Origin: Armatimonadota bacterium
GTDB lineage: Bacteria; Armatimonadota; HRBIN16
NCBI GenBank assembly: GCA_963677485.1
Contig: OY781964.1
Location: 3,616,001-3,680,000 of the forward strand
Direction of reading: 5' to 3'
DNA: 64,000 bases
Shown here piece by piece: positions 387 through 15,415 of this stretch. The position numbers and the translations under genes were made by a program. Positions within the stretch are counted from its first letter, which is position 1, and each line of letters opens with the position of its first letter. The notes below the pieces were generated by a model. It had not been told where the DNA came from, did not search any database, and was given only the letters and a program-made list of their open reading frames with translations.

Positions 387-1469
387 CTATGAACTTTGCC
401 GACCGTAACCGCGGCGCAGGCCGATGGCGGAACGCAGCTCGCTTGCCAGATTGACCGCCTCATGTCTACTGAGTCCCTGAAACAGCCGCGTGTTCACACC
501 GCATATCACCACATCAAGGCCGCATTGAGGTGTGTTTTTGGTGGTCAGAAGCCATTCCGAAGGCTGGATGTCACCGATGTCGGAGAGCTGGTACTCGTAC
601 CGCTGCCCGAATGGACGTTCACCAACGACAAATAGGCCTTGCGTTACTTCGATGTATCTGTTTTTCAAAGACGATGCGGCTATCGTCACCAAAGCCACTA
701 AGGCGTTGATCAGCGCATTTGCATACTGGGTTAGCGCGTGCCACAACCGCTCCCAAACTGGCGATGAGGAGGCATCAGATAGCGCACCTATGGCCACATA
801 GACGATGATGGCCACGGCGATGACACCCTTAAAGGCCAAGGCTACCGGTTGCGGCATCCAGTACTGCATCCCCTGACCAACCTGGCGCGAGAGAACCTTC
901 CGCTTTTTCGCGGGTTCATGTGTTGCATATGACACCCCAAGAGGCTGCATCACCATGGGGAAATACCTTTGCACGAGAGAGCGTATCTCCTCCATGCTGT
1001 CGCGATCGATGTTCTGGCAGGCGGCGAAATCACCGCTTTCCGTGCTGAACACCAATGTCCATCCTGCATCATCGCTACTGGCCGGATTATGGATGGCTTG
1101 GAAGTCACGCACACTACCCAGGCTGAACACTTTCGGCTTGAACGGCCAACGCACCACAGATAGATGGCTTAAAGTGATCTCTAGCTGCTCATGGCTTAAA
1201 TGCATGTAGCCCAGAATGACGAGGATTAATACAATACCAGGCCCTAGGACAAAAAAGGCCGCAGACGCATCAGAAACCAGCATGTGGTAGGCGATCATAC
1301 CCAACAGCGTCGACATGACCAATATAAACACCGTCTTAACAAACACAGGGTTATCGTCGCTCTTGCGCACGCGCAGTCCATCATGGGTTTGCTGGATAGT
1401 GACCATTTTCGAACGGCCTTTACGAACTGGGGATACTGGCTTTGGTGACTTAAGCGCACGCAGATACAT
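387..1469 (-). CDS. Hypothetical membrane protein, two repeats of TM hairpin plus soluble (PH-like?) domain
   Basis: 360-aa ORF, GGGAG RBS upstream, two hydrophobic hairpins each followed by a ~80-aa beta-rich segment. Confidence 0.6.
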   Translation of the reverse strand: MYLRALKSPKPVSPVRKGRSKMVTIQQTHDGLRVRKSDDNPVFVKTVFILVMSTLLGMIAYHMLVSDASAAFFVLGPGIVLILVILGYMHLSHEQLEITLSHLSVVRWPFKPKVFSLGSVRDFQAIHNPASSDDAGWTLVFSTESGDFAACQNIDRDSMEEIRSLVQRYFPMVMQPLGVSYATHEPAKKRKVLSRQVGQGMQYWMPQPVALAFKGVIAVAIIVYVAIGALSDASSSPVWERLWHALTQYANALINALVALVTIAASSLKNRYIEVTQGLFVVGERPFGQRYEYQLSDIGDIQPSEWLLTTKNTPQCGLDVVICGVNTRLFQGLSRHEAVNLASELRSAIGLRRGYGRQSS

Positions 1470-1573
1470 AAACGGCTCCCACTAATCATAGGTTGTAGCG
1501 GACGGATCAGACGTATCTTGCCAATCCGTCCGATCACAATAAAACCAAATTCCTGCCCGTAAGTGTGACGGGT

Positions 1574-2674
1574 TTACAGCCCGGCGCCTGTTTTGCGAAT
1601 CACGCCATTCGTCGCCGTAGTGATGGCTTCCACTATTGATTCCGCCTCACTGTGGGTGATGTCTTTCACCAGCACCACTGGCATCAGCTTCTCACGGAAG
1701 GCGACCATGCTCTGTGCTGCATGTGGATTGCTGTTCTTCAGCGTCAAAGCCTGAAGGTCGGTCACTAGCTTCAAGTTCACCGACCTGCGTCCAGATCCCT
1801 TCGGGTAACTGATATCATCAAGACCCACCACGATATGGCGGTCGCTGGGTCGGCGGCGGATGCCATACACAGCAACCGCCAGCAGCACGATCAGTGGCAG
1901 GACGATGGATCCAAAAGAGACCAGCGTCGAAGCGACGAGGTTGACAGCCATGATGATGGCACCTGCGGCCAGGGCCCACCAGCCCATCACACCGTAGCTG
2001 GCGCGTTGTTTGGGCTTGATGATGAGCATCCCCTGATCCGTCTCACAGGTATAACGCATCGTCAAATGGCTCAACTCACCATCTGCGAGCTGTTCACGGA
2101 TGTCCTCTCGGATAATCTGAGCGTGCCTGGGCTTCATATACTGCCATATCCGGTCGCGTTCCTTCAAGGTCAGGCCCAATCCCCACGGGTGGCATTCGCT
2201 GCCTTGTACCATCCACATCCGGGGCTCGTTGCCAAGCAGGCCAGGCATCGGCAGTGTGCCGAAGTGCAGGTAAGCCCCCTTATCAGCTTGAAACATGATG
2301 TCCGGCAGGAAGCTACGCTGTAACCTTATGGTGTGACCATCTGTGCTGAGCTTCTCACGACGAAAAGCCCACATAAACAACACGGCACAAGGAACCAGTA
2401 TCATCGGGCTCATACGCAGCAGCAACACCCAGTCGAAGCCTTTGGGTCCAGACATCACCATCGTCTGCGCCACCACCCACAGCATCCCAAACACCACAAG
2501 CACCATACCGGAAAATCGGGCTCCATTACCGCCTGTGAAGGCACTTACTGTAGTGGTGCCATCACTATCGGTGACTGTAGCCTCTTCCCATTGCTCGTAG
2601 TAAGGTGTGCCCGGTAACCAGGCATTCCGCTGTTCAAACTCCTCAACCCTGTTTTGCAGCCACTCATCAGCCAA
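1574..2674 (-). CDS. Hypothetical membrane protein, architecture similar to 387..1469
   Basis: 366-aa ORF, two TM hairpins each followed by a soluble segment; 9 bp downstream of the methyltransferase gene. Confidence 0.6.
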   Translation of the reverse strand: MADEWLQNRVEEFEQRNAWLPGTPYYEQWEEATVTDSDGTTTVSAFTGGNGARFSGMVLVVFGMLWVVAQTMVMSGPKGFDWVLLLRMSPMILVPCAVLFMWAFRREKLSTDGHTIRLQRSFLPDIMFQADKGAYLHFGTLPMPGLLGNEPRMWMVQGSECHPWGLGLTLKERDRIWQYMKPRHAQIIREDIREQLADGELSHLTMRYTCETDQGMLIIKPKQRASYGVMGWWALAAGAIIMAVNLVASTLVSFGSIVLPLIVLLAVAVYGIRRRPSDRHIVVGLDDISYPKGSGRRSVNLKLVTDLQALTLKNSNPHAAQSMVAFREKLMPVVLVKDITHSEAESIVEAITTATNGVIRKTGAGL

Positions 2675-2683
2675 GACTGTTCT

Positions 2684-3532
2684 CTACTTTGCCGGGCTGG
2701 TACACCGGGCTATGAAATAGTAGACCAGTGCGCCTGTGATGTGATCAACATGAACTTCCTGACTTAACAGTGCATGAAGCTCAGGCTTGGAAAAGCGGAA
2801 ATAATAGATGCCGCCCTCATGTTCGCCTTCTTTTTGGCTCATGAGGCGTGTATATAAGGAGTGCTTATAGGCAGAGATCACGATCGGTCTACCGGCGCTG
2901 CACACCCGGCCCATTTCGCGAATCGCCTGCCTCCGCAAGTCATCCGTAGGGATGTGCTCCAGCACTCCGCAACTCACCACACGGTCACAAACCTCCTGCC
3001 GTAATGGCATATTGCACAGGTCAGCTTGAATGAGGTCCACGTTCTCCACACCGGCTTCTTTAAGCTTCCGGGCACACACCAATAGCGATTCCCAGCTAAA
3101 GTCCATCGCGATGACCTGCTGGCTCCGCTTGGCAAACTCAATCGTCATTCGTCCTGTGCCGCATCCCGCTTCCAGCAATACGTGCCTGGAACACAGGTCC
3201 AGATAGCGGATGGTCATCGGAATCTCAAGCAGTCCGTAAAGATTGAGATACCACATGCCGTCGTAGTCGTTGACCTGAGCATCGCGCGCCTGGATCTCTT
3301 TCTGCTGCTGCAGCGAATCGGTGGGAAGACTTCCCGCGGCACTCGCTGGAGTGCGAAGATGATCGGGCAGCATTTTAGGAATGCCGTTGACTATTTCATA
3401 TACTCGGTTGCATACCGGACAAGTTAACAAGCCAGATGTGACGATATCGCCGTTGCTAACCTCATCTTTAAGCTTTAGTGACGATTCGCATCCTGCCGGG
3501 CAGCGTAATGATGCTAATAACGAGAGATGCAT
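2684..3532 (-). CDS. Trm112-like zinc-knuckle domain fused to class I SAM-dependent methyltransferase
   Basis: N-term LRCPAGC..LTCPVCNRVYEIVNGIPKML (Trm112 pattern); LEAGCGTGR motif I; VLEHI. Confidence 0.8.
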   Translation of the reverse strand: MHLSLLASLRCPAGCESSLKLKDEVSNGDIVTSGLLTCPVCNRVYEIVNGIPKMLPDHLRTPASAAGSLPTDSLQQQKEIQARDAQVNDYDGMWYLNLYGLLEIPMTIRYLDLCSRHVLLEAGCGTGRMTIEFAKRSQQVIAMDFSWESLLVCARKLKEAGVENVDLIQADLCNMPLRQEVCDRVVSCGVLEHIPTDDLRRQAIREMGRVCSAGRPIVISAYKHSLYTRLMSQKEGEHEGGIYYFRFSKPELHALLSQEVHVDHITGALVYYFIARCTSPAK

Positions 3533-3608
3533 TTTTGGGCTTTCTCCTTTGAGGTCGCGATGGCTGTTAGCTCATCCATGCGCTCCCCAACATACAGTAT
3601 ATGCGAAT

Positions 3609-3637
3609 GGCCCGGTCTGCGGTAGTTAGACCGGGCC
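3609..3637 (-). terminator. Hairpin downstream of propeller gene copy 1
   Basis: GGCCCGGTCT-9nt-AGACCGGGCC. Confidence 0.55.
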
Positions 3638-3650
3638 CAATTTAAAGGTT

Positions 3651-4751
3651 CTATTTCTCCCAGGTAATCTTGACGGAGTGCAGCTCCGTATTCCAGTTGG
3701 CCCAGTTCACACCAGGGGTCGCGCTATAAGCGTATCCCAGGTATATCGGCCGTTTGAGGTCGATATGCCCTTGTGTGTCGGCACTGATGCCACAGTTGTG
3801 GAGATAGGGAATCATATTTTTGGTGATGCTGATCGGTTCGCTCCAGCTTAGTCCATCTTGCGAAGTCCTGACAGCGATGAAACTGTTCGGCCCCATCCGA
3901 CTGGCTGTGCTGACCGAAATGAAGCTTTTATATGCAGGGATATACTTCACATCGGCGCTGTCTTCATTGTCAAGCCTGTCCCATGCGGTGCCAATAAACT
4001 TTATCTTCGCTGGCCAGTTTTCATCGTCAGCAGGAGCGGTGGCAATCATCGTGCGGTTGGTACTCACCCTGGCATTTTGCGGCCCCTCAGCACTCATGAC
4101 GGTGTAGTAGATATACAGCGTCTTGCCCAGGCGCACAAAACTGGGTTCTCCAGCCCCCCATACAAGCAATGGCGTGCGGAATGGCACAATCGGCAGCGGC
4201 TTCAAACCACCCCAGCCGGATCCGTTCCACTTCTCAAAAGGGCCCGTGGGGCTGCTGCTGCGTGACACAAAAATCTCGGCACGGTTCCCTGCCAGATTAT
4301 CGGCGGCTGTCACACCCAGGTAGTAATATTTCCCTAGTTTGATGACACACGGATCGCAAACGCTGAATTTGTCACGCGAGAATGGGGTAGGCATCAGAAC
4401 GATGGTTTCATCGCTGGCCCACTTTCCTTCAGCGGTCAGCTTGCGGTGGCGGATCCAGTCCCACTGGTAATAGCTGTCACCTTCTACAGCATTCTCAGGA
4501 AAGGGATGGAACACCTTGAAGTCTGGTTTGTTTTCTACCGAACCACCCGGTGATGAAAAGTAAGCATCGATGCTGCCATCGGGATTGATCAACAGGGAGG
4601 GACCATATCGATAGGCGGCGCCGTCTTTTGTGGGATCGAAGAAGGTTCGGCCGGGTTCGGCATCAATCGTGAGGCGTTTGATGGGCTTCGCCATTCCACA
4701 CGCCGAGGAAACCATGATCAAGGCCACTAATGGCCATGCGGGATATTTCAC
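3651..4751 (-). CDS. Secreted five-bladed beta-propeller glycoside hydrolase-like protein (GH43-like clan), copy 1
   Basis: GTG start with CAGGAG RBS, signal peptide, motifs YRYGPS, VCDPCV, GAGEPS. Confidence 0.65.
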   Translation of the reverse strand: MKYPAWPLVALIMVSSACGMAKPIKRLTIDAEPGRTFFDPTKDGAAYRYGPSLLINPDGSIDAYFSSPGGSVENKPDFKVFHPFPENAVEGDSYYQWDWIRHRKLTAEGKWASDETIVLMPTPFSRDKFSVCDPCVIKLGKYYYLGVTAADNLAGNRAEIFVSRSSSPTGPFEKWNGSGWGGLKPLPIVPFRTPLLVWGAGEPSFVRLGKTLYIYYTVMSAEGPQNARVSTNRTMIATAPADDENWPAKIKFIGTAWDRLDNEDSADVKYIPAYKSFISVSTASRMGPNSFIAVRTSQDGLSWSEPISITKNMIPYLHNCGISADTQGHIDLKRPIYLGYAYSATPGVNWANWNTELHSVKITWEK

Positions 4752-4846
4752 TAACAGATTCTCCTGAGATTGATTAAGAAGCCGCAAACTGCGGCATGAG
4801 TAGCATCTTGTTCACTCGGTCCGCAAGATGCAGGATATGGGAATGG

Positions 4847-4871
4847 CCCGGTCTGCATGAGGCAGACCGGG
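4847..4871 (-). terminator. Hairpin downstream of propeller gene copy 2
   Basis: CCCGGTCTGC-atgag-GCAGACCGGG; homologous to 3609..3637. Confidence 0.55.
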
Positions 4872-4887
4872 TTTGGAGATGATGTGG

Positions 4888-5988
4888 TTATTTTTCCCAG
4901 GTGATCTTCACGGGGTGAAGCTCTGTATTCCAGCTGCCCCAGTTCACGCCGGGGGTCACGCTATAGGCGTATCCCAGGTAAATCGGCCGTTTGAGGTCGA
5001 TATGCCCCTGTGTGTCGGCACTGATACCACAGTTATGAAGGTAGGGGTGGAGGTTCTTCTTGATATGGATCGGTTCACTCCAGCTTAGCCCATCTTTAGA
5101 GGTGCGGACTGCAATATAACTATCCGGTCCCATCCGGCTGGCGGTGCTGACCGATATGAAGCTCTTGTAGGCTGGGATGTACTTCACGTCGGCACTATCT
5201 TCGCCTTCAAGCCTATCCCATGCGGTGCCGATAAACTTCATCTTCGCAGGCCAGTCTTCATCATCGGCCGGTGCGGTGGCGACCATCGTGCGGTTGATAC
5301 CCACTCTGGCATTCAACGGACCCTCAGCACTGGTGATGGTGTAATAGATGTATAGTGTGTTGCCCAAGCGCACAAAGCTGGGCTCTCCAGCTCCCCATAC
5401 CAGCAACGGTGTGCGGAATCGCACAATCGGCAGCGGCTTCACGCCACCCCAGCCAGACCCGTTCCATTTCTCAAAGGGACCGGTGGGACTGGTGCCGCGT
5501 GCCACGAATACCTCGTTACGGTTACCCGGTAGATTGTCGACGGCGGTTACACCAAGATAGTAGTAGGTACCCAGCTTGATCACACCCGGATCGCATACGC
5601 TGTATTTATCACGCGAAAAAGGGGTCGCCATCAGCACGATGGTTTCAGCGCTGGCCCACTTACCTTCAGCGGTCAGCTTACGGTGTCGGATCCAGTCCCA
5701 CTGGTGGTAGCTGTCACCCTCCACGGGAGTTTCAGGAAATGGGTGGAATACCTTGAAATCGGGCTTGTTTTCCACGGAGCCACCTGGCGAGGCGTAGTAT
5801 GAATCGATACTGCCGTCCGGGTTGATCAACAGTGTCGGGCCATACCGATACGCGGCACCGTCTTTTGTATGATCGAAGATAGTCCAGCCGGGTTCGGCAT
5901 CTATCGTAAGGCGCTTGATAGGCTTAGCCATTCCACACGCCGAAGAAACCATGATCAAGGCCACTAAGGGCCATGCACTGAATCTCAT
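4888..5988 (-). CDS. Secreted five-bladed beta-propeller glycoside hydrolase-like protein, copy 2 (tandem paralog)
   Basis: ATG with CAGGAG RBS; colinear and the same length as 3651..4751, most residues identical. Confidence 0.65.
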   Translation of the reverse strand: MRFSAWPLVALIMVSSACGMAKPIKRLTIDAEPGWTIFDHTKDGAAYRYGPTLLINPDGSIDSYYASPGGSVENKPDFKVFHPFPETPVEGDSYHQWDWIRHRKLTAEGKWASAETIVLMATPFSRDKYSVCDPGVIKLGTYYYLGVTAVDNLPGNRNEVFVARGTSPTGPFEKWNGSGWGGVKPLPIVRFRTPLLVWGAGEPSFVRLGNTLYIYYTITSAEGPLNARVGINRTMVATAPADDEDWPAKMKFIGTAWDRLEGEDSADVKYIPAYKSFISVSTASRMGPDSYIAVRTSKDGLSWSEPIHIKKNLHPYLHNCGISADTQGHIDLKRPIYLGYAYSVTPGVNWGSWNTELHPVKITWEK

Positions 5989-6195
5989 AGTTTGATACTC
6001 CTGGGACAGATTTGGAAGCGACACACTGTAGCCCGGTAATGAACCTGGCCACTTTCAATTTCGCCATTTGTTTCTCGATTCCTGCGTGACCGTTGGCACA
6101 AATACTCAGCCTTCGGCGACGGGTTCCATCAACCCACAAAAGCGGGCCTCGTCACCCGTGGCAATCGTGGTTGAGCAGCTAATCACACGCACCAA

Positions 6196-7266
6196 CTACC
6201 ATTGGTACTCATACATCGCCCGTGCGTTTGCTAATGGCACCGCATGGTGAAGCTCTGTGGTGCTGCCCATGAAGAACTTGCGGCCGCCTGTGATCTCGAT
6301 CGCCTGGCGACAGCATTCCTGCACCTGCTCCGGCGTGCCGAACGGCAGCAACTGGCTGACGTCGATACCTCCCGCCATGAAAAGCTGCGGTTGCAGCTCG
6401 CGAACTGTGGCCATGCTCATACCCGCGCAGCTCTCGATCGGGTTGATGCCATCGATACCGGCACCCGCCAAGTCGGCCAGGATCGGTGTGAGGTCGCCAT
6501 CGCTGTGGAACAGGCAGGTCACACCATATTGATGCCAGGCTTCCACCAGCCGCTGCAGCCGGAAGAAGAAGTGGTCCCGCAGCCATTTTGGGCTGAACAT
6601 CGGTCCGCCCTTGGCGGCGATGTCATCATATGTTAGTGCGACTTCTATCAGCCCCGTGGGGGCGAGGGCATGGACCCATCGGATCTGTGCCTTGTTGCGT
6701 GTTTCCAGCCAGTCGTCTACCAGCTCGGGTTCATCGGCACAGAGCTCCGCGAAGAGCTGCAGCCCGCATGATCCGTAAGCCTCTGTGAGTCCTACCCCGC
6801 TTTCCAGAACGAACATCGGAAGCTCTTTCTCGTCACCTACGGTAGACATACATTCGGTGTAGAACTGCTTCACCATGGCTTCGGTACCGGCCACAGCCGC
6901 GGGGTCAACCGTATCGGCTGCGTTGATGGCTGTAATCTGCGTCTTGACCCACTCCGCCAGACCTTCCACATCGTGGTATGGCCGTTTGGTGATCCAACTC
7001 GTCCAGCGCTCCGTCTGCCAGGCATGGCCGTCTGGAGATTCGTAAGTGCCGGGCGCATTCGGGCCGAACACCATGCGGGTCATATCCAGGCAGCGGGAGA
7101 TCGCTTTGGCCTTGACTTGACGGCCATTCTCCACGGTCAGCGCCTCGCCGGCATAGTATTTAATCACATCGTCGTTCATTAGGATGTCGTATGTTGGGAC
7201 GCGGTCTACCTCCTCGCCACGGATAGCTCTGGCTACTCGTTCTCGTCGGCTCATGCTGATTGCCAT
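6196..7266 (-). CDS. Uroporphyrinogen decarboxylase (URO-D/MtaA-CmuA) family protein
   Basis: MSRRERV..GEEVDRVP N-term, YDDIA, FHSDG, GGIDVSQLL..GTPEQV; GGAG RBS before 7266. Confidence 0.8.
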   Translation of the reverse strand: MAISMSRRERVARAIRGEEVDRVPTYDILMNDDVIKYYAGEALTVENGRQVKAKAISRCLDMTRMVFGPNAPGTYESPDGHAWQTERWTSWITKRPYHDVEGLAEWVKTQITAINAADTVDPAAVAGTEAMVKQFYTECMSTVGDEKELPMFVLESGVGLTEAYGSCGLQLFAELCADEPELVDDWLETRNKAQIRWVHALAPTGLIEVALTYDDIAAKGGPMFSPKWLRDHFFFRLQRLVEAWHQYGVTCLFHSDGDLTPILADLAGAGIDGINPIESCAGMSMATVRELQPQLFMAGGIDVSQLLPFGTPEQVQECCRQAIEITGGRKFFMGSTTELHHAVPLANARAMYEYQW

Positions 7267-7361
7267 AAAATACGCTCCGTTTTTCGTCTCGCTGTATATC
7301 GCGAAAACTTTGTCCATGTGGGACAATAAAAATAGTAGATCATTTCTTTTGAGGTCGCAAC

Positions 7362-8459
7362 ATGCAATACCGTGAATACGGACGAACCGGAATCAAAGTG
7401 TCTGCATTAGGATTTGGTGCCATGCGGCTGCCATTCCAAGATGTGGATCTCTCTGTAAGCATCTTACAACATGCAATGGACAAAGGGGTAAACTTCATCG
7501 ATACCGCCTATGTCTACGGTGAAGATGGGGCCAGCGAGAAGGTAGTGGGGCAGGCTCTGAAGGGCCGTCGAGACAAAATCATCTTGGCGACCAAGAACCC
7601 GCTATTCGATGAGACTGCGGAAGGCTGACGCACTCGTCTGGAAACAAGCCTTAAGCGGTTGGATACAGACTATATCGACTTTTACAAAGTGATTCATGGC
7701 ATCAACTACAGTAACTACGAAGGTGTGTATCTTGACACCTTACTGCCAGAGATCATGAAAGCCAAAGAAGAGGGTAAAATCCGTCACATTACCTTCAGCA
7801 GCCATGACAGCCCGGAGAACATCATCAAGCTGATTGATACAGGTGCCTTCGAGGGCATGCTGGTGCAGTATAACCTTCTGGACCGCCGCAACGAACCCGC
7901 CCTCGCTCAGGCACTTGCCAAGGGGATGGGCGTGGAGATCATGGGGCCGGTGGGCGGAGGGCGCCTGGGCATGGCCAGCAACCGGCTGCGCGACCTGATC
8001 CCGGGCATCTCGGGCACGCCGGAATTGGCACTGCGATTTGTTTTGAGCAACCCTGCGGTGGTCACCGCCTTCAGCGGCATGAACACCATGCAGCAGGTGG
8101 ACGAAAACTGCACCACGGCCAGCCGTGAAGAGCCTTTGAGCGCCCAAGAGCGCACGCAGATCGAAGAAGCGTTGGAAGAGAACCGCAGCCTGAGCGAGCT
8201 GTATTGCACCGGATGCAACTACTGCCTGCCTTGTCCGCAGGGAGTGGCTATCCCGGAGATATTCGCTGCGATGAACCATCACCGTGTGTGGGGGCTCACC
8301 GATTTGGCCAAACACATGTATTCTCACTTTGGTGTGAACAACAAAGATGGCAAACTCAACGCCGAGGGTTGCGTGGAGTGCGGTGAATGTGAAGCCAAGT
8401 GCCCGCAGCACATCGAGATCATCCGGCAGTTGAAGGAAACACACGCTGCAATAGGCTAG
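7362..8459 (+). pseudogene. Aldo/keto reductase with C-terminal 4Fe-4S dicluster, interrupted by an in-frame TGA at 7626-7628
   Basis: LGFGAMRLP, FIDTAYVY, then G-TGA-RTRLETSLKRLDTDYIDFY in the same frame; CTGCNYCLPCP and CVECGECEAKCP. Confidence 0.8.
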
Positions 8460-8465
8460 AAGAAG

Positions 8466-8493
8466 GTAGGGGCGGTTCGCGAACCGCCCTTAC
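8466..8493. repeat. GTAG-type REP-like palindrome
   Basis: GTAGGGGCGGTTCGCGAACCGCCCTTAC; palindrome core recurs at 60750..60774. Confidence 0.7.
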
Positions 8494-8520
8494 CGTGCCT
8501 GCCCTTCTTTTTGCGGGTGC

Positions 8521-8893
8521 ATTTAACCACGAATGCACACGAATGAACACCAATGGGACATCTCACGCGAAGACGCGAAGGGGTCAGATTGGCAGTGTCC
8601 TACTCGTCTTGCTCATCCTAATCGCCCTATTAGGGGCTCTTTTAACCGCGGATGAACACGAATGAACGCGAATGGGAAGTCTCACGCGAAGACGCGAAGG
8701 CGCGAAGGGATGGCTTGGCAGTGTCCTACTCGTCTTACTCATCCTAATCGTTCTGCTGGGGCTCATTTTGACCGCGAATGCACACGAATGGACGCTAATG
8801 GGACATCTTACGCGAAGACGCGACGTATAGGGGCGTACTGCTTATTCCCGTGCTCTCCCCATCCTCCCATCCGCGTAATCCGTGGTTCAGACA
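8521..8893. repeat. Composite intergenic repeat: about 2.5 tandem ~120-bp units plus an inverted module
   Basis: Modules AACC(A/G)CGRATG(A/C)ACACGAATG, TCTCACGCGAAGACGCGAAG, GTCCTACTCGTCTT(G/A)CTCATCCTAATCG repeated. Confidence 0.8.
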
Positions 8894-8948
8894 AATTCCC
8901 TGGGCACATTCCACAAATATCCCACTATTTTACCAAAAAAGCACGAAG

Positions 8949-8980
8949 TATATATGAATATCCCTATATAGTGATATAAT
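8949..8980 (+). promoter_or_regulatory. Putative ArsR operator adjacent to an extended -10 promoter
   Basis: TATATATGAAT|ATCCCTATATA imperfect palindrome (9/11) then TGaTATAAT at 8972-8980. Confidence 0.55.
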
Positions 8981-9002
8981 TATATTCAGGTGCTCAAAAC
9001 AC

Positions 9003-9317
9003 ATGAAAAAAACAACCAAATTGATACCGATGGAAGTGCTGAACCAGGTGGCCCCTGTGATACGAAACACCGCACATCCACTGCGTTTGCGTATTCTGGA
9101 CTACCTCCAGTGCGCAGGGGAGCCACAGAACGTCAACCAGATCACTGAGGCAACCGATGTTGCTCAGGCATTCGTCAGTCAACAACTGCGCATACTCAAA
9201 GACCAGGGCGTGCTCACCTGCCAACGTCACGGCTTGTTCATGATGTATGAAATATCCAACCCGGCTCTGCTGCACCTTCTGGAGTGCATCCGGACACATG
9301 GTAAAGACTGTAAATAG
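9003..9317 (+). CDS. ArsR/SmtB family repressor, BigR/SqrR-like, four Cys
   Basis: AHPLRLRIL..VSQQLRIL..YEI wHTH; Cys at 37, 73, 95, 103. Confidence 0.85.
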   Translation: MKKTTKLIPMEVLNQVAPVIRNTAHPLRLRILDYLQCAGEPQNVNQITEATDVAQAFVSQQLRILKDQGVLTCQRHGLFMMYEISNPALLHLLECIRTHGKDCK

Positions 9318-9364
9318 ACCAGATGGGCATATCTGCTCATGACAAACACAAGGAGACATCTCTA

Positions 9365-9616
9365 ATGGCCGCAAATCTTGAATCCATCACCCCAGATAAG
9401 TCTGTTGACGCCCGTGCTATGGCATGCCCCGGTCCGCTGCTTGAAGCCAAAAAGGCTATTAGCACCGTCGCTGTGGGGCAGACACTTGAAATCATGTCCG
9501 GTGACAAGGGAAGCCAGGAAGACATCCCCGCATGGTGCAAAAAGACCGGACACGAGTACCTCGGATTTGTAGAGCGCGACGGATACGACAGCCTCTACGT
9601 CATCCGAAAAAAGTAA
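9365..9616 (+). CDS. tusA: TusA/SirA family sulfur carrier
   Basis: VDARAMACPGPLL..DIPAWC; AGGAG RBS. Confidence 0.85.
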   Translation: MAANLESITPDKSVDARAMACPGPLLEAKKAISTVAVGQTLEIMSGDKGSQEDIPAWCKKTGHEYLGFVERDGYDSLYVIRKK

Positions 9617-9634
9617 GCCGCATTGGGAGCAGCC

Positions 9635-10036
9635 ATGGAACCGCAGGTTAACTCCAAAATACTGATCATCACCACTATGATCAGTTCCTATCCTGGCGCA
9701 AACACAACAGGTCAAGCCCGGTTGCAATACTCGCCGGGCACCTCCATCATTCGTGTGCCCGACCCAGTGATGTTCCCCGAGGAGTTCTATATGCGCGCGT
9801 TTGAGAAGGGCATCGAGGGCATCATCATCATGTCTAGTGGCTCGGACTGCCCGTATGAAGGAGCCTATAAACGGCTTTCAGACCGGGTTGGGCGCCTCTA
9901 CAAACGCATGAAAGAGGCTGGGATTGACCAGTCCAGGCTGAAACTGACCACAGTCTGCACGGTATGTAAGGCCGCTTTTCTGAAAGAGATCGCCGAAATG
10001 CAGGCCAATATTAACAAACAACGGACGGCATCCTAA
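9635..10036 (+). CDS. MvhD/FlpD-like hydrogenase iron-sulfur subunit, atypical Cys pattern
   Basis: YPGANTTGQARLQY..IIRV..RAFEKGIEGIII..DCPY..GIDQSRL matches the MvhD scaffold. Confidence 0.75.
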   Translation: MEPQVNSKILIITTMISSYPGANTTGQARLQYSPGTSIIRVPDPVMFPEEFYMRAFEKGIEGIIIMSSGSDCPYEGAYKRLSDRVGRLYKRMKEAGIDQSRLKLTTVCTVCKAAFLKEIAEMQANINKQRTAS

Positions 10037-11350
10037 GTGGAAAATCCTATAAGCACACTCACCGAAAAACTAGTCGCAGATGCATTGGTTGTCGGCGCAG
10101 GGATTGCTGGACTGCAATCCGCACTGGACCTGGCGGACCAGGGCAAGCACGTGCTGCTGGTGGAACCCCAACCCAGCATCGGCGGACGCATGATCAACCT
10201 TAGTAAAGTGTTTCCTACGCTGGACTGCGCAAGCTGCATCACCACCCCCCGCATGGCATCCGTGTCGCACCATCCGAATATTACTCTTTTCACCTACACC
10301 GACGTCGAGCAGATCGAGAAGAACGGCAGCCGCTTCCATGCCACGATCGTGAAGAAACCCCGTTACATCAACGAGGAAGACTGCATCGCTTGCAAACAGT
10401 GCGAAGAGGCCTGTCCCACTTTCCTGCCGGATGAGTATGACCACGCGCTTGGAGCCAAGAAAGTCATCTCTATTCCATTTACTAATGCCATTCCGCAACT
10501 ACCGGTGCTGGACATGTCTGAATGCGTGCTCTGCGGGGCCTGCGCGAAGGTCTGCCCAAAAGACTGCATAGACTTCCTGCAGCAGCCAAAGCGAATTGAA
10601 GTGGATGCCGGTGTGGTGGTGATGGCGACCGGCTACAATCTGACGGAGATGAGTGCGAAGAAGCAATATGGCGGGGAGAAATACCCCAATGTCATTTCGC
10701 CCATCCAAATGGAACGCATCCTGGCACCACATGGTCCTTTCGGAGGCGTGATGCGACCTTCTGACGGCAAGATTCCTTCTTCAATCGCCTATGTGCAATG
10801 CGCGGGCTCACGTGATAAAAGTCTGGGTGTGCCGTATTGCTCACGCGTCTGCTGTATGTATGCCATCAAGCAGGCGATGCTGCTTTCCGGTTCGCTGCCC
10901 ATCGCCGACATCACCATCTATTACATGGATATCCGTGCGTTTGGGAAGGGCTACGAACAGTTCTACCAAAACGCCAAGGCCATGGGGATCGAGTTCGTTA
11001 AGGCCAAAGTCGGACGTATCACTGAAGGCGAAAACCATGATTCTGTGCTGCGCATAGAGCGTCAGGAGGATGGCTCCAAACCGGAGGAAGTCACGCACGA
11101 CCTGGTGGTGCTCTCTCTGGGAATGGTGCCAGCCTGGCAGCCTTCGCCGGGCGGTATGATCCCGCTGGAAGCCAGTGCTGATGGCTTTATACACAACCCA
11201 AAAGCGAAGATTAACCCCACGCTGACCAGCATGCCGGGAGTGTTTGCCGCCGGTGCCGCGACGGGACCTAAGGACATTGTCGACGCGATTGTGGACGCCA
11301 GTGCCGCCGCGGCAGAAGCAGCGAACTACCTGATGAGTATAGAGGCATAG
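10037..11350 (+). CDS. HdrA/QmoA-like FAD/Fe-S protein
   Basis: GAGIAG, KVFPTLDCASC, two CxxCxxCxxxCP, QCAGSRD..YCSRVCCMYAIK. Confidence 0.9.
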   Translation: MENPISTLTEKLVADALVVGAGIAGLQSALDLADQGKHVLLVEPQPSIGGRMINLSKVFPTLDCASCITTPRMASVSHHPNITLFTYTDVEQIEKNGSRFHATIVKKPRYINEEDCIACKQCEEACPTFLPDEYDHALGAKKVISIPFTNAIPQLPVLDMSECVLCGACAKVCPKDCIDFLQQPKRIEVDAGVVVMATGYNLTEMSAKKQYGGEKYPNVISPIQMERILAPHGPFGGVMRPSDGKIPSSIAYVQCAGSRDKSLGVPYCSRVCCMYAIKQAMLLSGSLPIADITIYYMDIRAFGKGYEQFYQNAKAMGIEFVKAKVGRITEGENHDSVLRIERQEDGSKPEEVTHDLVVLSLGMVPAWQPSPGGMIPLEASADGFIHNPKAKINPTLTSMPGVFAAGAATGPKDIVDAIVDASAAAAEAANYLMSIEA

Positions 11351-11354
11351 TGAT

Positions 11355-13145
11355 ATGACACAATCTGAACAAACAACACCAGGCACACCGCCCTTCGATG
11401 ATATCCGCGTTGGCGTGTATGTATGCCACTGCGGCGGCAACATCTCCGATGTCGTGGACACCAAAGCGGTGGCAGAGGCGGTCGGACAAGACCCCAACGT
11501 GAAGATCGCACGCGACTATGTTTTCATGTGCTCCGACCCGGGCCAGCAGCTCATCATTGACGACATCATCGCGAACAACATCAACCGCGTGGTGGTCGCT
11601 GCCTGCTCACCGTCGCTTCATGAGCTCACGTTCCGTAATGCACTCATACGTGCCGGTCTGAATCCCTACTTTTATGAGCACGTCAACATCCGAGAACAGG
11701 TCAGCTGGGTTCATAAGGGTGACCATGGCGGGGCGACCGCCAAAGCCATCCGCCTCACTGCTGCCGGTGTCGCGAAGATTGTGCGGCAGGACGCCTTGGA
11801 GCCGATAGAAGTTGATGCCAACGGCCATGTGCTAGTGATAGGGGCTGGCGTCGCAGGACTACGCGCTGCGCTCACCCTGGCACAACGCGGTTTGGGTGTG
11901 ACCGTGGTGGAGAAAAATACCGCCGCAGGCGGACGAATGGCCGAGTTGGACACGGTATATCCCACCGCGGAGAAGGCCTCCGAGCTGCTGGCTGAGCTCA
12001 CCGACGCGGTGACTCACAACCCCAAGATTGAACTGCTGACGAGTACCGAGGTCACCGCCATTGACGGCTTTGTGGGTAACTTCAAAATCGCACTCAGCTC
12101 TCAGACGGAGATACTGGCCGGTTCGATTATCATCGCCACAGGCTTTGACCACTACCAGCCCTATGATGGTGAATTTGGCTACCACACCTCCCCCGAGGTG
12201 GTGACGCTGCCAGAGTTCAACCAAATTCTTCGCCAACACACCTCCAGTGGCAGCCAACTCAAGCATAATGGCCGCGCAATTCATGACATCGCCTTCATCC
12301 ATTGCGTGGGAAGCCGCCAAGTGGAGGGTGTTCATCAGCCACAACCTGACGGTAAAGTCAATGACTATTGCTCACGAGTGTGCTGCACATCAACGCTGCA
12401 TACCATCGAGCAGACGCTAGACCGCTACCCTGATGTCAACATTTACGATCTCTACAAAGACATCCGCACCTACGGACGAGGCCATGAAGAATACTACGAA
12501 AATGCCTCCAAGAAGGGCGTGCTCTTCTTCAGATATAACGACGACGGTCTTCCGCAGTTTGAACCGGGACTCAACGGGAAACAGGCTAGCTTGAAGGTCA
12601 CCGACTGGCTGACCTGGGGAGAGGAGGTCACGATCCCCGTGGATATGGTCGTTCTTGCCACAGGTATGATGCCCAGAGACATTTCAAGCATCGTGTCCAT
12701 GTTGAAACTGCCGATTGGTGCTGACCGCTTCCTGCAGGAGGTGCATCCCAAGCTTCGGCCTGTGGAGCTGGCCAACAACGGCGTGATGATCGCGGGCACA
12801 TGCCAGGGGCCCATGGACATCAACGAGGCCTGTGTGGCAGCGGGAGCCGCCGCCAGCAAGGCGTCCATCCTGCTCTCTAAACCGATCATCGAGATTGACC
12901 CCTTCGTAGCGCGTGTCGATATTGATAAGTGCGACGGCTGCCAGCTTTGCCTGGCGGAGTGTGAGTACCGAGGTGCCCTGACCATGGTGGGTGATAAGGC
13001 TTCGGTTAACCCCGCCATCTGCGTGGGTTGCGGAGCGTGTGTGGCGGTCTGCCCGCCTCGCGCTATCAACATCGCTGGATGGACACTGGAGCAGTTTGAT
13101 GCTATGATCGACGCCATCACCACCGAGGAGGTGCCTCATGCCTGA
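11355..13145 (+). CDS. Second HdrA/QmoB-like FAD/Fe-S protein
   Basis: VYVCHCGGNI..FMCS..AACSP N-domain, GAGVAG, HCVGSR..YCSRVCC, C-terminal ferredoxin. Confidence 0.9.
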   Translation: MTQSEQTTPGTPPFDDIRVGVYVCHCGGNISDVVDTKAVAEAVGQDPNVKIARDYVFMCSDPGQQLIIDDIIANNINRVVVAACSPSLHELTFRNALIRAGLNPYFYEHVNIREQVSWVHKGDHGGATAKAIRLTAAGVAKIVRQDALEPIEVDANGHVLVIGAGVAGLRAALTLAQRGLGVTVVEKNTAAGGRMAELDTVYPTAEKASELLAELTDAVTHNPKIELLTSTEVTAIDGFVGNFKIALSSQTEILAGSIIIATGFDHYQPYDGEFGYHTSPEVVTLPEFNQILRQHTSSGSQLKHNGRAIHDIAFIHCVGSRQVEGVHQPQPDGKVNDYCSRVCCTSTLHTIEQTLDRYPDVNIYDLYKDIRTYGRGHEEYYENASKKGVLFFRYNDDGLPQFEPGLNGKQASLKVTDWLTWGEEVTIPVDMVVLATGMMPRDISSIVSMLKLPIGADRFLQEVHPKLRPVELANNGVMIAGTCQGPMDINEACVAAGAAASKASILLSKPIIEIDPFVARVDIDKCDGCQLCLAECEYRGALTMVGDKASVNPAICVGCGACVAVCPPRAINIAGWTLEQFDAMIDAITTEEVPHA

Positions 13146-13422
13146 CAACACACCCAAAGCCTATCTGCAGCAGCTTAAGCAGCTCAGGGCTGCGCGTGGT
13201 CCTTTGCCGAAAGAGATGGTAGAGCGGGGCAAAAGCCAGATTACCATGCAAAAGGCCATTCTAGCGGCGATCGAGACGGAAGCAAAAACCGTGCCCGAGA
13301 TCGCGGAGATCACCGGTATAGCCACCCAGGACGTGTTCTGGTGGGTCACCGCGATGCGCAAATATAACCGCGTTCAAGACGGTAAAAAGCGCGGCGAATA
13401 CGCCACGTACCTGAAGAAGTGA
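13138..13422 (+). CDS. Small winged-helix-like protein inside the redox operon
   Basis: KAILAAI..KTVPEIAEITGI..VFWWVTAMRKY; overlaps upstream stop; GAGGAGG RBS. Confidence 0.65.
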   Translation: MPDNTPKAYLQQLKQLRAARGPLPKEMVERGKSQITMQKAILAAIETEAKTVPEIAEITGIATQDVFWWVTAMRKYNRVQDGKKRGEYATYLKK

Positions 13423-13432
13423 GAGGCCAGGC

Positions 13433-14563
13433 ATGAGTGTTACCATCAACCCAAAACTAATCAAAGATATCAAGAAGTATGGTGCGTTTGATATCAGTGC
13501 CTGCTTCAATTGCGGCAACTGCACAGCGGTCTGCCCATTATCTGACGAGCATGGGAATTTCCCCCGCAAGCTGATACGGCTGGGACAGATCGGCAGCAGA
13601 GACCGGATCCTGTCCAGTCCTGAGCCCTGGCTCTGTTACTACTGCGGCGAATGCTCCGATACCTGCCCGCGTCAGGCCGAGCCCGGCGAGTACATGGCCG
13701 CTCTGCGCCGTTACACCATCGCTGCCAGTGAACCAACCGGGATCGCAAAGCTGATGTACCAAAGCGGCATCATGGCGATACTCGTCACGCTGCTTGTCGG
13801 CATCGTGTTCGGGGCCTTCATGCTGTCGGTCAAAATGGGGGAGAACCCGGCGCACTGGCTGTTTTCTCCCATCTCCTACGAGTTCATACACGTGTTTGGT
13901 ATCATCGTGTCCATCGTCACTTTACTCACCATACTTGGTGGGGTTTCCAATGTGTGGCGGCGCATCATGAACGGTGCTGAGATGCCGAAGACTAACGGCC
14001 CCCAGTGGGTCGCCGCCATTAAAAAGACCATCGTAGAAATCGCCACAATGGCCCGCCATCGCCAGACCACAGAAGAGTCGGTTCCTGGCCCCTGGTATAA
14101 ACAGTCCGCCTGGGTTCATATGGGTATCATGTATGGCTTCATAGGCCTACTGGTGGCCACCACCCTGGACTTCATCTTCCTGGTGCTGCTGCCGTTGCAC
14201 CTTACGGTGTTTTGGCCGGCACGTATCATCGGGACGGTGGCTGGTCTGGCCATGATGTGGGGCGTGAGTGCTGCCATCGGTCGACGCATGAGCAGGGCCG
14301 AGAAGAACGTCGAACACTCACGGCTGCCAGACTGGTGGGTTCTCGTCTTCCTGTTTGTGCTGGGAGTCACGGGCTTCTGGCTCGAACTCGCTGTCACATT
14401 CAAAGCTGCGGGGACCATCAATGACGCAGTGATGCTGATCCATGCCGCCATGGCGATGGAACTCGTGCTGCTGATGGCGTTCACCAAAATGGCGCACGTC
14501 ATCTATCGCCCTATCGCACTGTTTGCCTATTTCCTGAAGAAATCTACGGAGGAACCAGCATGA
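13433..14563 (+). CDS. QmoC-like protein: HdrC-type 2x[4Fe-4S] domain plus NarI-like heme-b membrane domain
   Basis: ACFNCGNCTAVCP, WLCYYCGECSDTCP, about 6 TM helices with His (HMGIMYGF, HAAMA, HVIYRP). Confidence 0.8.
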   Translation: MSVTINPKLIKDIKKYGAFDISACFNCGNCTAVCPLSDEHGNFPRKLIRLGQIGSRDRILSSPEPWLCYYCGECSDTCPRQAEPGEYMAALRRYTIAASEPTGIAKLMYQSGIMAILVTLLVGIVFGAFMLSVKMGENPAHWLFSPISYEFIHVFGIIVSIVTLLTILGGVSNVWRRIMNGAEMPKTNGPQWVAAIKKTIVEIATMARHRQTTEESVPGPWYKQSAWVHMGIMYGFIGLLVATTLDFIFLVLLPLHLTVFWPARIIGTVAGLAMMWGVSAAIGRRMSRAEKNVEHSRLPDWWVLVFLFVLGVTGFWLELAVTFKAAGTINDAVMLIHAAMAMELVLLMAFTKMAHVIYRPIALFAYFLKKSTEEPA

Positions 14564-15132
14564 GCACCGACAACGCGCTATCTATAGAACAACTTTCTGA
14601 GCAAGTGTCCAGCCTGCAATCTCAGATCGATGATATCAAGGCCATGTCCCTGCCCGAAGACAAACTATCAATGGTAGTCTTCAGCGGTGATCTCGATAAG
14701 CAGCTTGCCGCCTTCATCATCGCCACCGGAGCCAGTGCCATGTTTGAGGAGGTGGTGATGTTCTTCACCTTCTGGGGAACTGCCGCACTGCGCGACCCAA
14801 ATAAGAACAAACAGGGCAAGGACCTCATCTCACAAATGTTCGGCTGGATGCTGCCCAAAGGCGCGTCAAAGCTGAAGCTTTCGCAGATGCATATGGGCGG
14901 AATGGGCACAAATATGATGAAGGGGCTGATGAAGAAGAAGAACGTCATGTCCCTGGAGCAGCTCATCAAGACGGCGGGCGAAGCAGGTGTTCGGATCGTC
15001 GTTTGTCAGATGAGCATGGATCTGATGGGCATGTCGATCGACGAGATGGTGGACTATCCCAACTTGAAGGTCGGTGGCGTGGCCGCCTTCCTGGGCGACG
15101 CAGGTACCAGCAAGACCACGCTGTTCATTTAG
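14560..15132 (+). CDS. DsrE2 (DrsE_2)-family sulfur carrier
   Basis: VVFSGDLDK..MFFTFWG..VCQMSMDLMG. Confidence 0.85.
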   Translation: MSTDNALSIEQLSEQVSSLQSQIDDIKAMSLPEDKLSMVVFSGDLDKQLAAFIIATGASAMFEEVVMFFTFWGTAALRDPNKNKQGKDLISQMFGWMLPKGASKLKLSQMHMGGMGTNMMKGLMKKKNVMSLEQLIKTAGEAGVRIVVCQMSMDLMGMSIDEMVDYPNLKVGGVAAFLGDAGTSKTTLFI

Positions 15133-15143
15133 GTCCGGGTGAC

Positions 15144-15170: not shown

Positions 15171-15415
15171 TTAGTGTGATGTATCGGACGCATCAGACGA
15201 ATCGGACTAATAAGCTGCCCCTCATCCCCGAGCAGTCGATGACCTACAAATCCAGATTGGGCTCGTATCGACCATGTACCGAAATATTTATGTCGCGGAA
15301 TCGGTGACCTACTGGCCATGCGATATTTGCGGGTAATTGACTGATCCCCGAGTAAACCATACATGACCGCACTTCCCCGAAACCACGCACCAAAACAGAA
15401 TCCGCGTGATGGGCT

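Follow-up and report, generated by a model that had tools for sequence, protein, structure and literature searches.

An eight-gene operon in the genome of an Armatimonadota bacterium (HRBIN16; GenBank assembly GCA_963677485.1) places the genes of two sulfur carriers, TusA and a DsrE2-type protein, together with genes for a Qmo/Hdr-like membrane redox complex. The operon lies in a stretch of 64,000 nucleotides (nt) from contig OY781964.1 (positions 3,616,001 to 3,680,000), here called the window. Positions given below are window positions unless they carry the prefix C1, which marks coordinates on the genome contig, and L013 to L092 denote the homologous loci kept for comparison. Eight open reading frames (ORFs), all on the + strand between 9003 and 15132, follow each other in the order arsR-tusA-mvhD-like-hdrA1-hdrA2-wHTH-qmoC-like-dsrE2-like, where wHTH is a winged helix-turn-helix gene. 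The operon is real and strongly conserved, and a mechanism in which its products couple quinone to protein-bound sulfur appears plausible from the gene sequences. Its features, with Pfam or NCBIfam E-values where a family matched, are as follows.

8955 to 8988, no strand assigned: candidate promoter and operator, an AT-rich imperfect inverted repeat with 15-nt arms and a 4-nt spacer.
9003 to 9317, + strand: ArsR/SmtB-family regulator of 104 amino acids (aa), with cysteines C37, C73, C95, and C103 (HTH_5/ArsR, 8.7e-11; NF033788, 61 bits against a cut-off of 55).
9323 to 9616, + strand: TusA-type sulfur carrier, 97 aa, with active-site Cys35 in a CPGP motif (PF01206, 4.7e-22).
9623 to 10036, + strand: MvhD-fold subunit, 137 aa, with a CxxC motif (C112/C115) after strand 4 (FlpD/MvhD, 7.2e-19).
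10037 to 11350, + strand: HdrA-like flavoprotein 1 (QmoA-like), 437 aa (NF040770, the HdrA2 model, 1.1e-144, model positions 130 to 561 of 777).
11355 to 13145, + strand: HdrA-like flavoprotein 2 (QmoB-like), 596 aa (NF040770, 1.5e-159; solved chain 8rvu_a, 4.3e-123).
13138 to 13422, + strand: winged-helix protein without cysteine, 94 aa, its start overlapping the end of hdrA2 by 8 nt (assigned with AlphaFold2 and Foldseek).
13433 to 14563, + strand: QmoC-like membrane subunit, 376 aa (NF038018, 2e-62; HdrC TIGR03290, 5.3e-16; Nitrate_red_gam, 1.5e-4).
14560 to 15132, + strand: DsrE2-type (PF13686) carrier, 190 aa, soluble, with Cys149 and an N-terminal extension of about 30 residues (DrsE_2, 4.3e-51).

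The initial annotation of this DNA had described a tightly packed operon of these eight genes. All ORFs were found at the claimed places on the + strand, the families agreed with the Pfam and NCBIfam matches (for the winged-helix gene, with a structural model), and the label "tightly packed" is right, since the gaps in operon order are 5, 6, 0, 4, −8, 10, and −4 nt. The annotation had also stressed that the operon lacks HdrB, AprAB, and the sHdr/LbpA proteins, and a family search of the operon proteins against Pfam and NCBIfam indeed found no HdrB/CCG, AprAB, or LbpA gene within it.

In methanogens, the MvhD subunit hands electrons from hydrogenase to HdrABC. The MvhD-fold protein of the operon is a clear member of this family (PF02662, 68.4 bits against a cut-off of 22.3), yet most of the canonical cysteines are gone. 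Taking as canonical the six cysteines conserved in the solved MvhD chains 9sw2_D, 5odc_D, and 7bkb_F, a set in which the four cluster-binding residues are not told apart from the others, five of the six aligned positions (17, 18, 21, 47, 72, and 76 of the query) are replaced and only C76 remains. The CxxC at 112/115, on the other hand, occurs in all 64 cluster-encoded MvhD-fold homologues, in which the number of canonical cysteines kept is zero in 6, one in 21, two in 25, and three in 12. A profile search over 1.84 billion representative sequences returned 1,813 relatives at an E-value of 0.001 or lower, and the 45 of the best 150 that covered all tested columns were scored for both features. 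Thirteen of these 45 carried the CxxC, 12 of them with three or fewer canonical cysteines, while 27 of the 32 representatives lacking it had four or more. This division of the canonical cysteine counts by presence of the CxxC argues that the CxxC-type MvhD is a distinct subfamily, with CxxC in place of cluster ligands. An AlphaFold2 model of the subunit (predicted local distance difference test [pLDDT] score, 84.9; template modeling [TM] score, 0.76 to 5odc_D) puts the CxxC between a strand at 106 to 109 and a helix at 116 to 136, and the canonical cysteine positions after strands 1, 2, and 3, so that the motif would share a sheet edge with the former cluster site. By analogy with Hdr and Qmo systems, the MvhD position presumably marks the place where a partner docks.

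Both carriers retain their active residues. The TusA-type protein scores 78 bits against PF01206 (cut-off, 28.6) and has the Cys-Pro-X-Pro active site; C35-P36-G37-P38 is invariant, with Cys35 present in 64 of 64 cluster-encoded homologues. It falls under the cut-off of the E. coli-type TusA equivalog model (42.5 versus 78 bits). A second tusA copy lies among unrelated neighbors at C1:4049538-4049747. The DsrE2-type protein scores 173 bits against PF13686 and 76.5 bits against the NCBIfam model SulfCarrDsrE2, below that model's cut-off of 210, and its nearest solved relatives are 3pnx_A (2.8e-28) and 2qs7_A (6e-15). Hydropathy analysis found no transmembrane helices in it, which sets it apart from the A. 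vinosum-type DsrE2, described with two transmembrane helices in PMC12998232. Its Cys149 is found in 33 of 33 homologues. This residue, TusA Cys35, and the CxxC of the MvhD-fold subunit are the only conserved thiols specific to the cluster. A complex prediction for the MvhD-fold subunit with TusA gave no answer (score, 0.02) and speaks neither for nor against their pairing.

The two HdrA-like proteins, encoded by hdrA1 and hdrA2 and called HdrA1 and HdrA2 here, have archaeal HdrA models as their best NCBIfam matches (1e-144 and 1e-159 for NF040770), with no Qmo model among the matches listed. HdrA1 consists of a flavin adenine dinucleotide (FAD) domain, an inserted 2x[4Fe-4S] ferredoxin domain, and the four-cysteine HdrA motif, and lacks the N- and C-terminal HdrA domains. 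HdrA2 has the N-terminal four-cysteine domain, an FAD domain without the inserted ferredoxin domain, the four-cysteine HdrA motif, and a C-terminal 2x[4Fe-4S] domain, matching NF040770 at model positions 1 to 232 and a related HdrA model at 309 to 637. It ends past the C-terminal ferredoxin domain with no MvhD domain fused to it, the MvhD-like gene being separate and upstream; the MvhD-fold protein in turn covers positions 645 to 770 of the 777-position NF040770 model. Judged by this coverage, HdrA1, HdrA2, and the MvhD-like protein together rebuild one archaeal HdrA-MvhD unit, with the two flavoproteins as complementary halves. All 14 conserved cysteines of HdrA1 align with cysteines of the genome's own canonical HdrA, and the same holds for every cysteine conserved across 61 HdrA1 and 63 HdrA2 sequences, which argues against a hidden extra catalytic cysteine in either protein.

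The QmoC-like subunit matches NF038018 over its full length (positions 8 to 363) at 211.8 bits, under the model's cut-off of 300. It joins an HdrC-like 2x[4Fe-4S] domain, with eight cysteines, to a membrane domain in which about six hydrophobic segments were counted. Residues H153, H229, H337, and H355 are invariant in 21 diverse homologues, as expected for putative ligands of two b hemes facing the menaquinone pool. Residue 212, in the loop before the third hydrophobic segment, is a cysteine in 81% of 75 homologues and a threonine here.

The operon is rare among close relatives and widespread beyond them. A full-length QmoC-like gene was found in 1 of 40 sampled relatives, a member of the same genus with 94% identity (G001), and the others matched only the HdrC-like part of the protein. 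Among 8,000 candidates scored, 3,200 proteins belonged to the QmoC-like family at an E-value of 1e-10 or lower, and in a pattern scan using one genome per species, at least 553 of the 600 stretches returned encoded a QmoC-like relative. The best 80 of these loci come from Armatimonadota, FCPU426, Bacteroidota, Acidobacteriota, Verrucomicrobiota, Chloroflexota, NC10, Actinomycetota, Planctomycetota, Spirochaetia, delta-proteobacteria, and one Heimdallarchaeota metagenome-assembled genome (MAG), the closest being armatimonadotal at 56 to 67% identity. Sixty loci extended at least 5 kb upstream of qmoC and could be tested for upstream genes, and 53 of them also extended at least 1.5 kb downstream. 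In 58 of the 60 (exceptions, L074 and L079), tusA, mvhD, hdrA1, and hdrA2 lay upstream of qmoC on the same strand, so the core tusA-mvhD-hdrA-hdrA-(wHTH)-qmoC is kept across more than 10 phyla; the winged-helix gene itself was detected in 48 of 60 by tblastn. A DsrE2-type gene was present in the cluster at 28 of 53 loci, and a DsrE-family gene of any type at 49 or more of the 53, a count that takes in PF02635 proteins of 121 to 125 aa, encoded after qmoC in loci from Chloroflexota, among others. Of the four loci scored as lacking such a gene, L035 and L044 do show a DsrE2-like ORF. The linkage to sulfur carriers, loss of which the initial annotation had named as refuting its idea, is thus conserved.

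No further gene recurred in more than 16 loci when all locus ORFs were clustered against each other; the recurrent extra genes encode ArsR, LysR, Crp, thioredoxin, an extracytoplasmic function (ECF) sigma factor, and a methyltransferase. AprA, of APS (adenosine 5'-phosphosulfate) reductase, and HdrB do not travel with the cluster; consistent co-occurrence of aprAB or hdrBC was the other refuting outcome named in the initial annotation, and the idea survived both tests. The genome's own HdrB, used as a query, matched none of the 80 loci, and AprA was not among the recurrent neighbor ORF clusters, although no AprA-directed search of the 80 loci was made. The 50 carrier genomes whose loci had long flanks, out of 80, were searched as a whole: AprA scored above its cut-off in 9, with G061 additionally having AprA in two pieces, and DsrA in 10, with G090 additionally below cut-off. 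Neither AprA nor DsrA was found in 37 of the 50.

Two variations among the loci are recorded here as side observations. In several Bacteroidales loci (L026:3219-5978, L028, L040, L042, and L045), the HdrA1 homologue reaches about 920 aa and contains an inserted module of the GltD/NfnB type (Fer4_20 plus Pyr_redox_2), an NAD(P)H entry point that the version in the window does not have. In three loci (L035:13755-17098, L076:11989-16705, and L085:10915-15598), another HdrA-HdrA(-wHTH)-QmoC/DsrE2-like cluster, divergent from the first, lies less than 8 kb from it on the other strand.

Searches of the organism's own genome, a single 5.22-Mb contig that is 97.4% complete, found no aprA, dsrA, sat, DsrC/TusE, YeeE/YedE, rhodanese, or NrfD. 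Rhodanese (PF00581) did not produce even a first-look candidate in it, while the same search was positive in 13 of 14 control genomes; its absence is unusual for a bacterium with 5.2 Mb. The initial annotation had called for a check of the genome for aprAB, dsrAB, hdrB, and sat, of which aprA, dsrA, and sat were not found. An hdrB gene is present: the only CCG-domain protein of the genome is an HdrB (C1:1356055-1356885) inside a separate hdrC-hdrB-hdrA-mvhD locus (C1:1353674-1357436), 2.27 Mb from the operon. Three further genes (263, 351, and 294 aa) follow in that locus, for a whole stretch of C1:1350861-1357436. Linkage of hdrCBA-mvhD to a TusA/Qmo-like operon was not seen in any locus examined. 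The genome has two MqnA/MqnD-family genes, so menaquinone is likely made by the futalosine route; menA was not found.

Read from its genes, the encoded complex is a Qmo in architecture, with two HdrA-like flavoproteins and an HdrC/HdrE-type fusion subunit carrying predicted heme-b histidine ligands. It shares with the type I QmoABC the pair of HdrA-related flavoproteins, the membrane subunit that joins an HdrC-like Fe-S domain to a di-heme b domain, and the possession of an MvhD-like module. PMC3333476 describes QmoC hemes reduced by quinols, a proposal of confurcation, and a C-terminal MvhD-like domain fused to QmoB, the partner of which was not known. The operon differs from this type in that it is not linked to aprBA and its genome lacks aprA, in the sub-cut-off score of its QmoC, in encoding the MvhD module as a separate gene with CxxC replacing the cluster cysteines, and in having TusA, DsrE, and a winged-helix gene built into it. 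By the criteria tested it falls outside canonical QmoABC, since its QmoC scores below the cut-off and both the MvhD domain fused to QmoB and the apr linkage are lacking. Compared by description only, it fits the "type II" QmoABC reported for Ammonifex degensii and "Ca. Vulcanisaeta moutnovskia," a Qmo without Apr or Dsr (Neukirchen et al. 2023, PMC10504309). The available portion of that account does not mention TusA/DsrE linkage, a winged-helix gene, or a CxxC MvhD-like subunit. A full-text search found no published description of this operon or of any of these three traits, a provisional result that does not cover two relevant reviews, one on HdrA and one on TusA.

Two other systems bear on the operon. 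Methanogen HdrA complexes, including HdrABC-MvhAGD (5odc, 7bkb, 8rvu, and 9sw2), are the best structural relatives of HdrA2, the MvhD-fold subunit, and the N-terminal (HdrC) domain of the QmoC-like protein, and their HdrA cluster motifs are all kept in the operon proteins. Here, however, HdrA is split into two complementary proteins, HdrB with its disulfide site is missing, HdrC is fused to a membrane heme domain, MvhD lacks cluster ligands, and no hydrogenase or formate dehydrogenase is linked. The sHdr-LbpA system of sulfur oxidizers likewise is an Hdr-type complex genetically tied to TusA and DsrE-family carriers of sulfane sulfur, which, according to PMC11094781, deliver sulfur to it. The operon complex differs in being membrane bound via the QmoC-like subunit and in having two HdrA-like subunits, and HdrB1/B2, HdrC1/C2, and LbpA are found neither among the operon genes nor among the recurrent neighbor clusters. 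With no HdrB and no LbpA, the operon represents neither the HdrABC nor the sHdr system.

On balance, we favor a complex of the Qmo type in which electrons pass between menaquinone and sulfane sulfur bound to TusA and DsrE by way of the CxxC of the MvhD-fold subunit. Persulfide exchange at the CxxC is proposed because the adaptor has swapped its cluster for this motif and the only conserved neighbors of the complex are two thiol-based carriers. In outline, the layout would follow that of Qmo, from quinone through b hemes, HdrC-like clusters, and HdrA-type FAD and clusters to an MvhD-type adaptor. TusA and DsrE2 would carry sulfane sulfur as cysteine persulfide to or from the complex, and the CxxC would serve as a site of thiol/disulfide or persulfide exchange where the partner docks. 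The neighboring HdrA2 clusters and FAD would reduce or oxidize the CxxC, with the clusters and hemes of QmoC passing electrons to or from menaquinone. Retention of the inserted ferredoxin domain in HdrA1, together with the NAD(P)H module present in some lineages, makes it plausible that a low-potential third partner takes part and that the flavin bifurcates or confurcates electrons. This partner would be ferredoxin in the present organism and NAD(P)H in the version found in Bacteroidales.

Standard potentials are about −75 mV for menaquinone and about −270 mV for S0/HS−. By standard potentials, the sulfide/S0 couple lies roughly midway between menaquinone and ferredoxin, so the complex could run in either direction. 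In this organism the direction may lean slightly to reduction, with carrier persulfide converted to H2S either as an electron sink or to relieve sulfane-sulfur stress. A more ambitious form of the proposal, which we advance tentatively and consider rather improbable as a whole, is that the complex is a flavin-based bifurcating sulfane-sulfur:menaquinone/ferredoxin (or NAD(P)H) oxidoreductase, with a TusA/DsrE-fed CxxC that is addressed by the adjacent HdrA cluster and replaces the non-cubane clusters of HdrB. Many anaerobes regarded as "fermentative" or heterotrophic, without Dsr, Apr, Psr, or Sox, would then have a hidden means of reversibly connecting zero-valent sulfur to the respiratory chain while conserving energy.

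Several points weigh against coupling of menaquinone to carrier-bound sulfur. The connection between the carriers and the complex is deduced from gene linkage and cofactor motifs. The CxxC could instead provide two ligands of a metal or cluster site shared with HdrA2, or be purely structural. By standard potentials, the step from quinol to persulfide is uphill, so that a scheme using quinone only needs a second driving partner. Because no rhodanese, YeeE, or Psr-type genes were found in the genome to supply TusA with sulfur, the source of sulfane sulfur is left unexplained. Presence in only 1 of 40 sampled relatives makes the operon accessory to its lineage, the absences recorded in carrier genomes are not proven since these are mostly MAGs, and the winged-helix protein has, in its model, the fold of a DNA-binding repressor, equally compatible with a regulator and with a subunit.

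The accessory distribution also suits a rather unlikely alternative, cytoplasmic housekeeping of reactive sulfur species by a persulfide or polysulfide reductase that detoxifies TusA/DsrE sulfane sulfur with any available reductant, quinone being a mere electron source and no energy being conserved. The first gene of the operon encodes an ArsR-family repressor with thiols, none of the other dissimilatory sulfur genes searched for was found in the genome, and thioredoxin genes adjoin the cluster in 11 of 80 loci, all of which would agree with such a role. A seven-subunit flavin/Fe-S/heme machine with an HdrA-type ferredoxin domain, however, far exceeds the needs of known single-subunit persulfide reductases, and nearly all loci retain the membrane subunit.

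If TusA and DsrE served maturation (for example, the supply of cluster sulfur) or regulation and were not substrates, the complex could be a general ferredoxin/NAD(P)H:menaquinone oxidoreductase. This is an unlikely reading, even though the operon has no recognized site of sulfur chemistry such as HdrB CCG domains, every HdrA cysteine is a standard cluster ligand, and HdrA1 in its Bacteroidales form carries an NAD(P)H module of the GltD/NfnB type as a fusion. Two carrier families, each with an invariant active cysteine, adjoin the complex across the same breadth of phyla, and the exchange of cluster ligands for CxxC on the MvhD fold is hard to explain without thiol chemistry.

Sulfur oxidation of the sHdr kind, in which sulfane sulfur on the carriers would be taken to the disulfide/polysulfide level or further and electrons split between menaquinone and ferredoxin, is decidedly unlikely. 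Compared with sulfide:quinone reductase, such a system would offer another route that saves energy. Sulfur oxidizers have TusA/DsrE sets alongside sHdr (PMC11094781), and the inserted ferredoxin domain is kept in HdrA1. By the potentials given above, bifurcation would run near equilibrium. The operon nevertheless has no HdrB, LbpA, or lipoate genes, a sulfite-handling enzyme is lacking (neither aprA nor sat was found in the genome), and the carrier taxa are, by their record titles, mostly anaerobic heterotrophs. The overall Qmo architecture would also suit an ordinary QmoABC whose APS reductase is encoded elsewhere, but this reading can be dismissed, given a nearly complete genome without aprA, sat, or dsrA, the scarcity of AprA among carrier genomes (9 of 50), and the low QmoC score.

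Regulation of the operon is a part of the initial annotation that needs correcting. It had assigned the ArsR to the BigR/SqrR type of persulfide sensors, in which a conserved pair of cysteines lies in alpha2 and alpha5. The protein reaches neither equivalog cut-off (BigR, 28.7 versus 155 bits; TsoR, 37.2 versus 115 bits), and C95 is the only one of its four cysteines kept in all four aligned Armatimonadota orthologues (L013, L017, L018, and L020). C95 recurs in L029 and L032, whereas C37 is not kept and no conserved N-terminal partner for C95 was found in the orthologue alignment. The flanking regulator also varies between lineages, being ArsR, LysR, or Crp, and the BigR/SqrR assignment is not supported.

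A palindromic operator had been proposed as well. The imperfect inverted repeat is there, with arms at 8955-8969 and 8974-8988 that are 80% complementary and 4 nt apart, and it overlaps an extended −10 box, TGATATAAT, at 8972-8980. The ArsR protein probably represses the operon at this AT-rich repeat. Its role as an operator is nonetheless putative, because the repeat is kept only in the sister genome of 94% identity and more distant Armatimonadota orthologues carry another inverted repeat upstream of arsR.

The 94-aa product matched nothing in Pfam or NCBIfam. Its AlphaFold2 model (pLDDT, 90.9) resembles winged-helix repressors of the ArsR/SmtB type, with SmtB, YgaV (3cuo), NolR, and CzrA as best Foldseek matches (TM scores of about 0.55 and a best E-value of 1.7e-4), and it lacks the last helix of these proteins. 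P53 and Y76 are invariant, and T51, V52, W68, K75, Y88, and Y91 are conserved at 90% or more. Judging from the model, the protein may be either a subunit or adaptor of the complex or a conserved embedded regulator, as the fold suits a DNA-binding regulator equally. The first role is mildly favored because the gene keeps its place in the operon while flanking regulators change by lineage. A DsrC-like carrier was ruled out, as the protein has no cysteine; the genome has no DsrC family match.

Dispersed repeats occupy both intergenic flanks of the operon, at 8460-8900 and 15230-15340, and the two flanks are unlike each other. The upstream element contains three similar units at about 8520-8830, and parts of this element have as many as about 99 genomic matches; the downstream element has up to about 55 matching places. 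Read depth in DNA runs jumps at the flanks. An apparent operon-free variant, in which a digester-metagenome contig (X7) connects 8893 with 15182 through 7 unrelated letters and so leaves out exactly the operon, was rejected as a possible artifact and is not read as a deletion, since one side of the joint is only 24 nt and both ends lie inside dispersed repeats. Contigs 90 to 95% alike from a bioreactor RNA-library run (X6) cover 9038-10314 (from arsR to within hdrA1), segments of both hdrA genes, and 14536-15133. These are not counted as evidence of expression because they are contigs only, DNA carry-over is possible, and the organism is a relative.

Upstream of the operon, the ORFs at 7362-7628 and 7659-8459 cover separate parts (Pfam profile positions 2 to 71 and 98 to 206) of a single aldo/keto reductase with a C-terminal 4Fe-4S dicluster domain, a split that may reflect a frameshift or an interrupted gene. 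Farther upstream, 387-7326 holds a minus-strand run of ORFs of 360 to 378 aa, mostly without Pfam matches, including one URO-D-like and one weakly GH43-like ORF, plus a class I methyltransferase.

The usual genomic markers of sulfur cycling are dsrAB, aprAB, and sox. If the reading favored here is correct, a widespread membrane complex connects the quinone pool with zero-valent sulfur carried by proteins, and does so in bacteria that are not counted as sulfur metabolizers. Genomes of species carrying it number in the hundreds, as judged from the 553 or more stretches with a relative, and include Armatimonadota, Bacteroidales, Anaerolineae, and Acidobacteriota. The CxxC on the MvhD fold would then be a new type of sulfur-redox site for the HdrA family of possibly bifurcating enzymes, and the function of the "type II" Qmo without APS reductase gains a concrete, testable partner candidate. 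Such a complex would also change how cryptic sulfur cycling is inferred from genomes in anoxic soils, lakes, and digesters.

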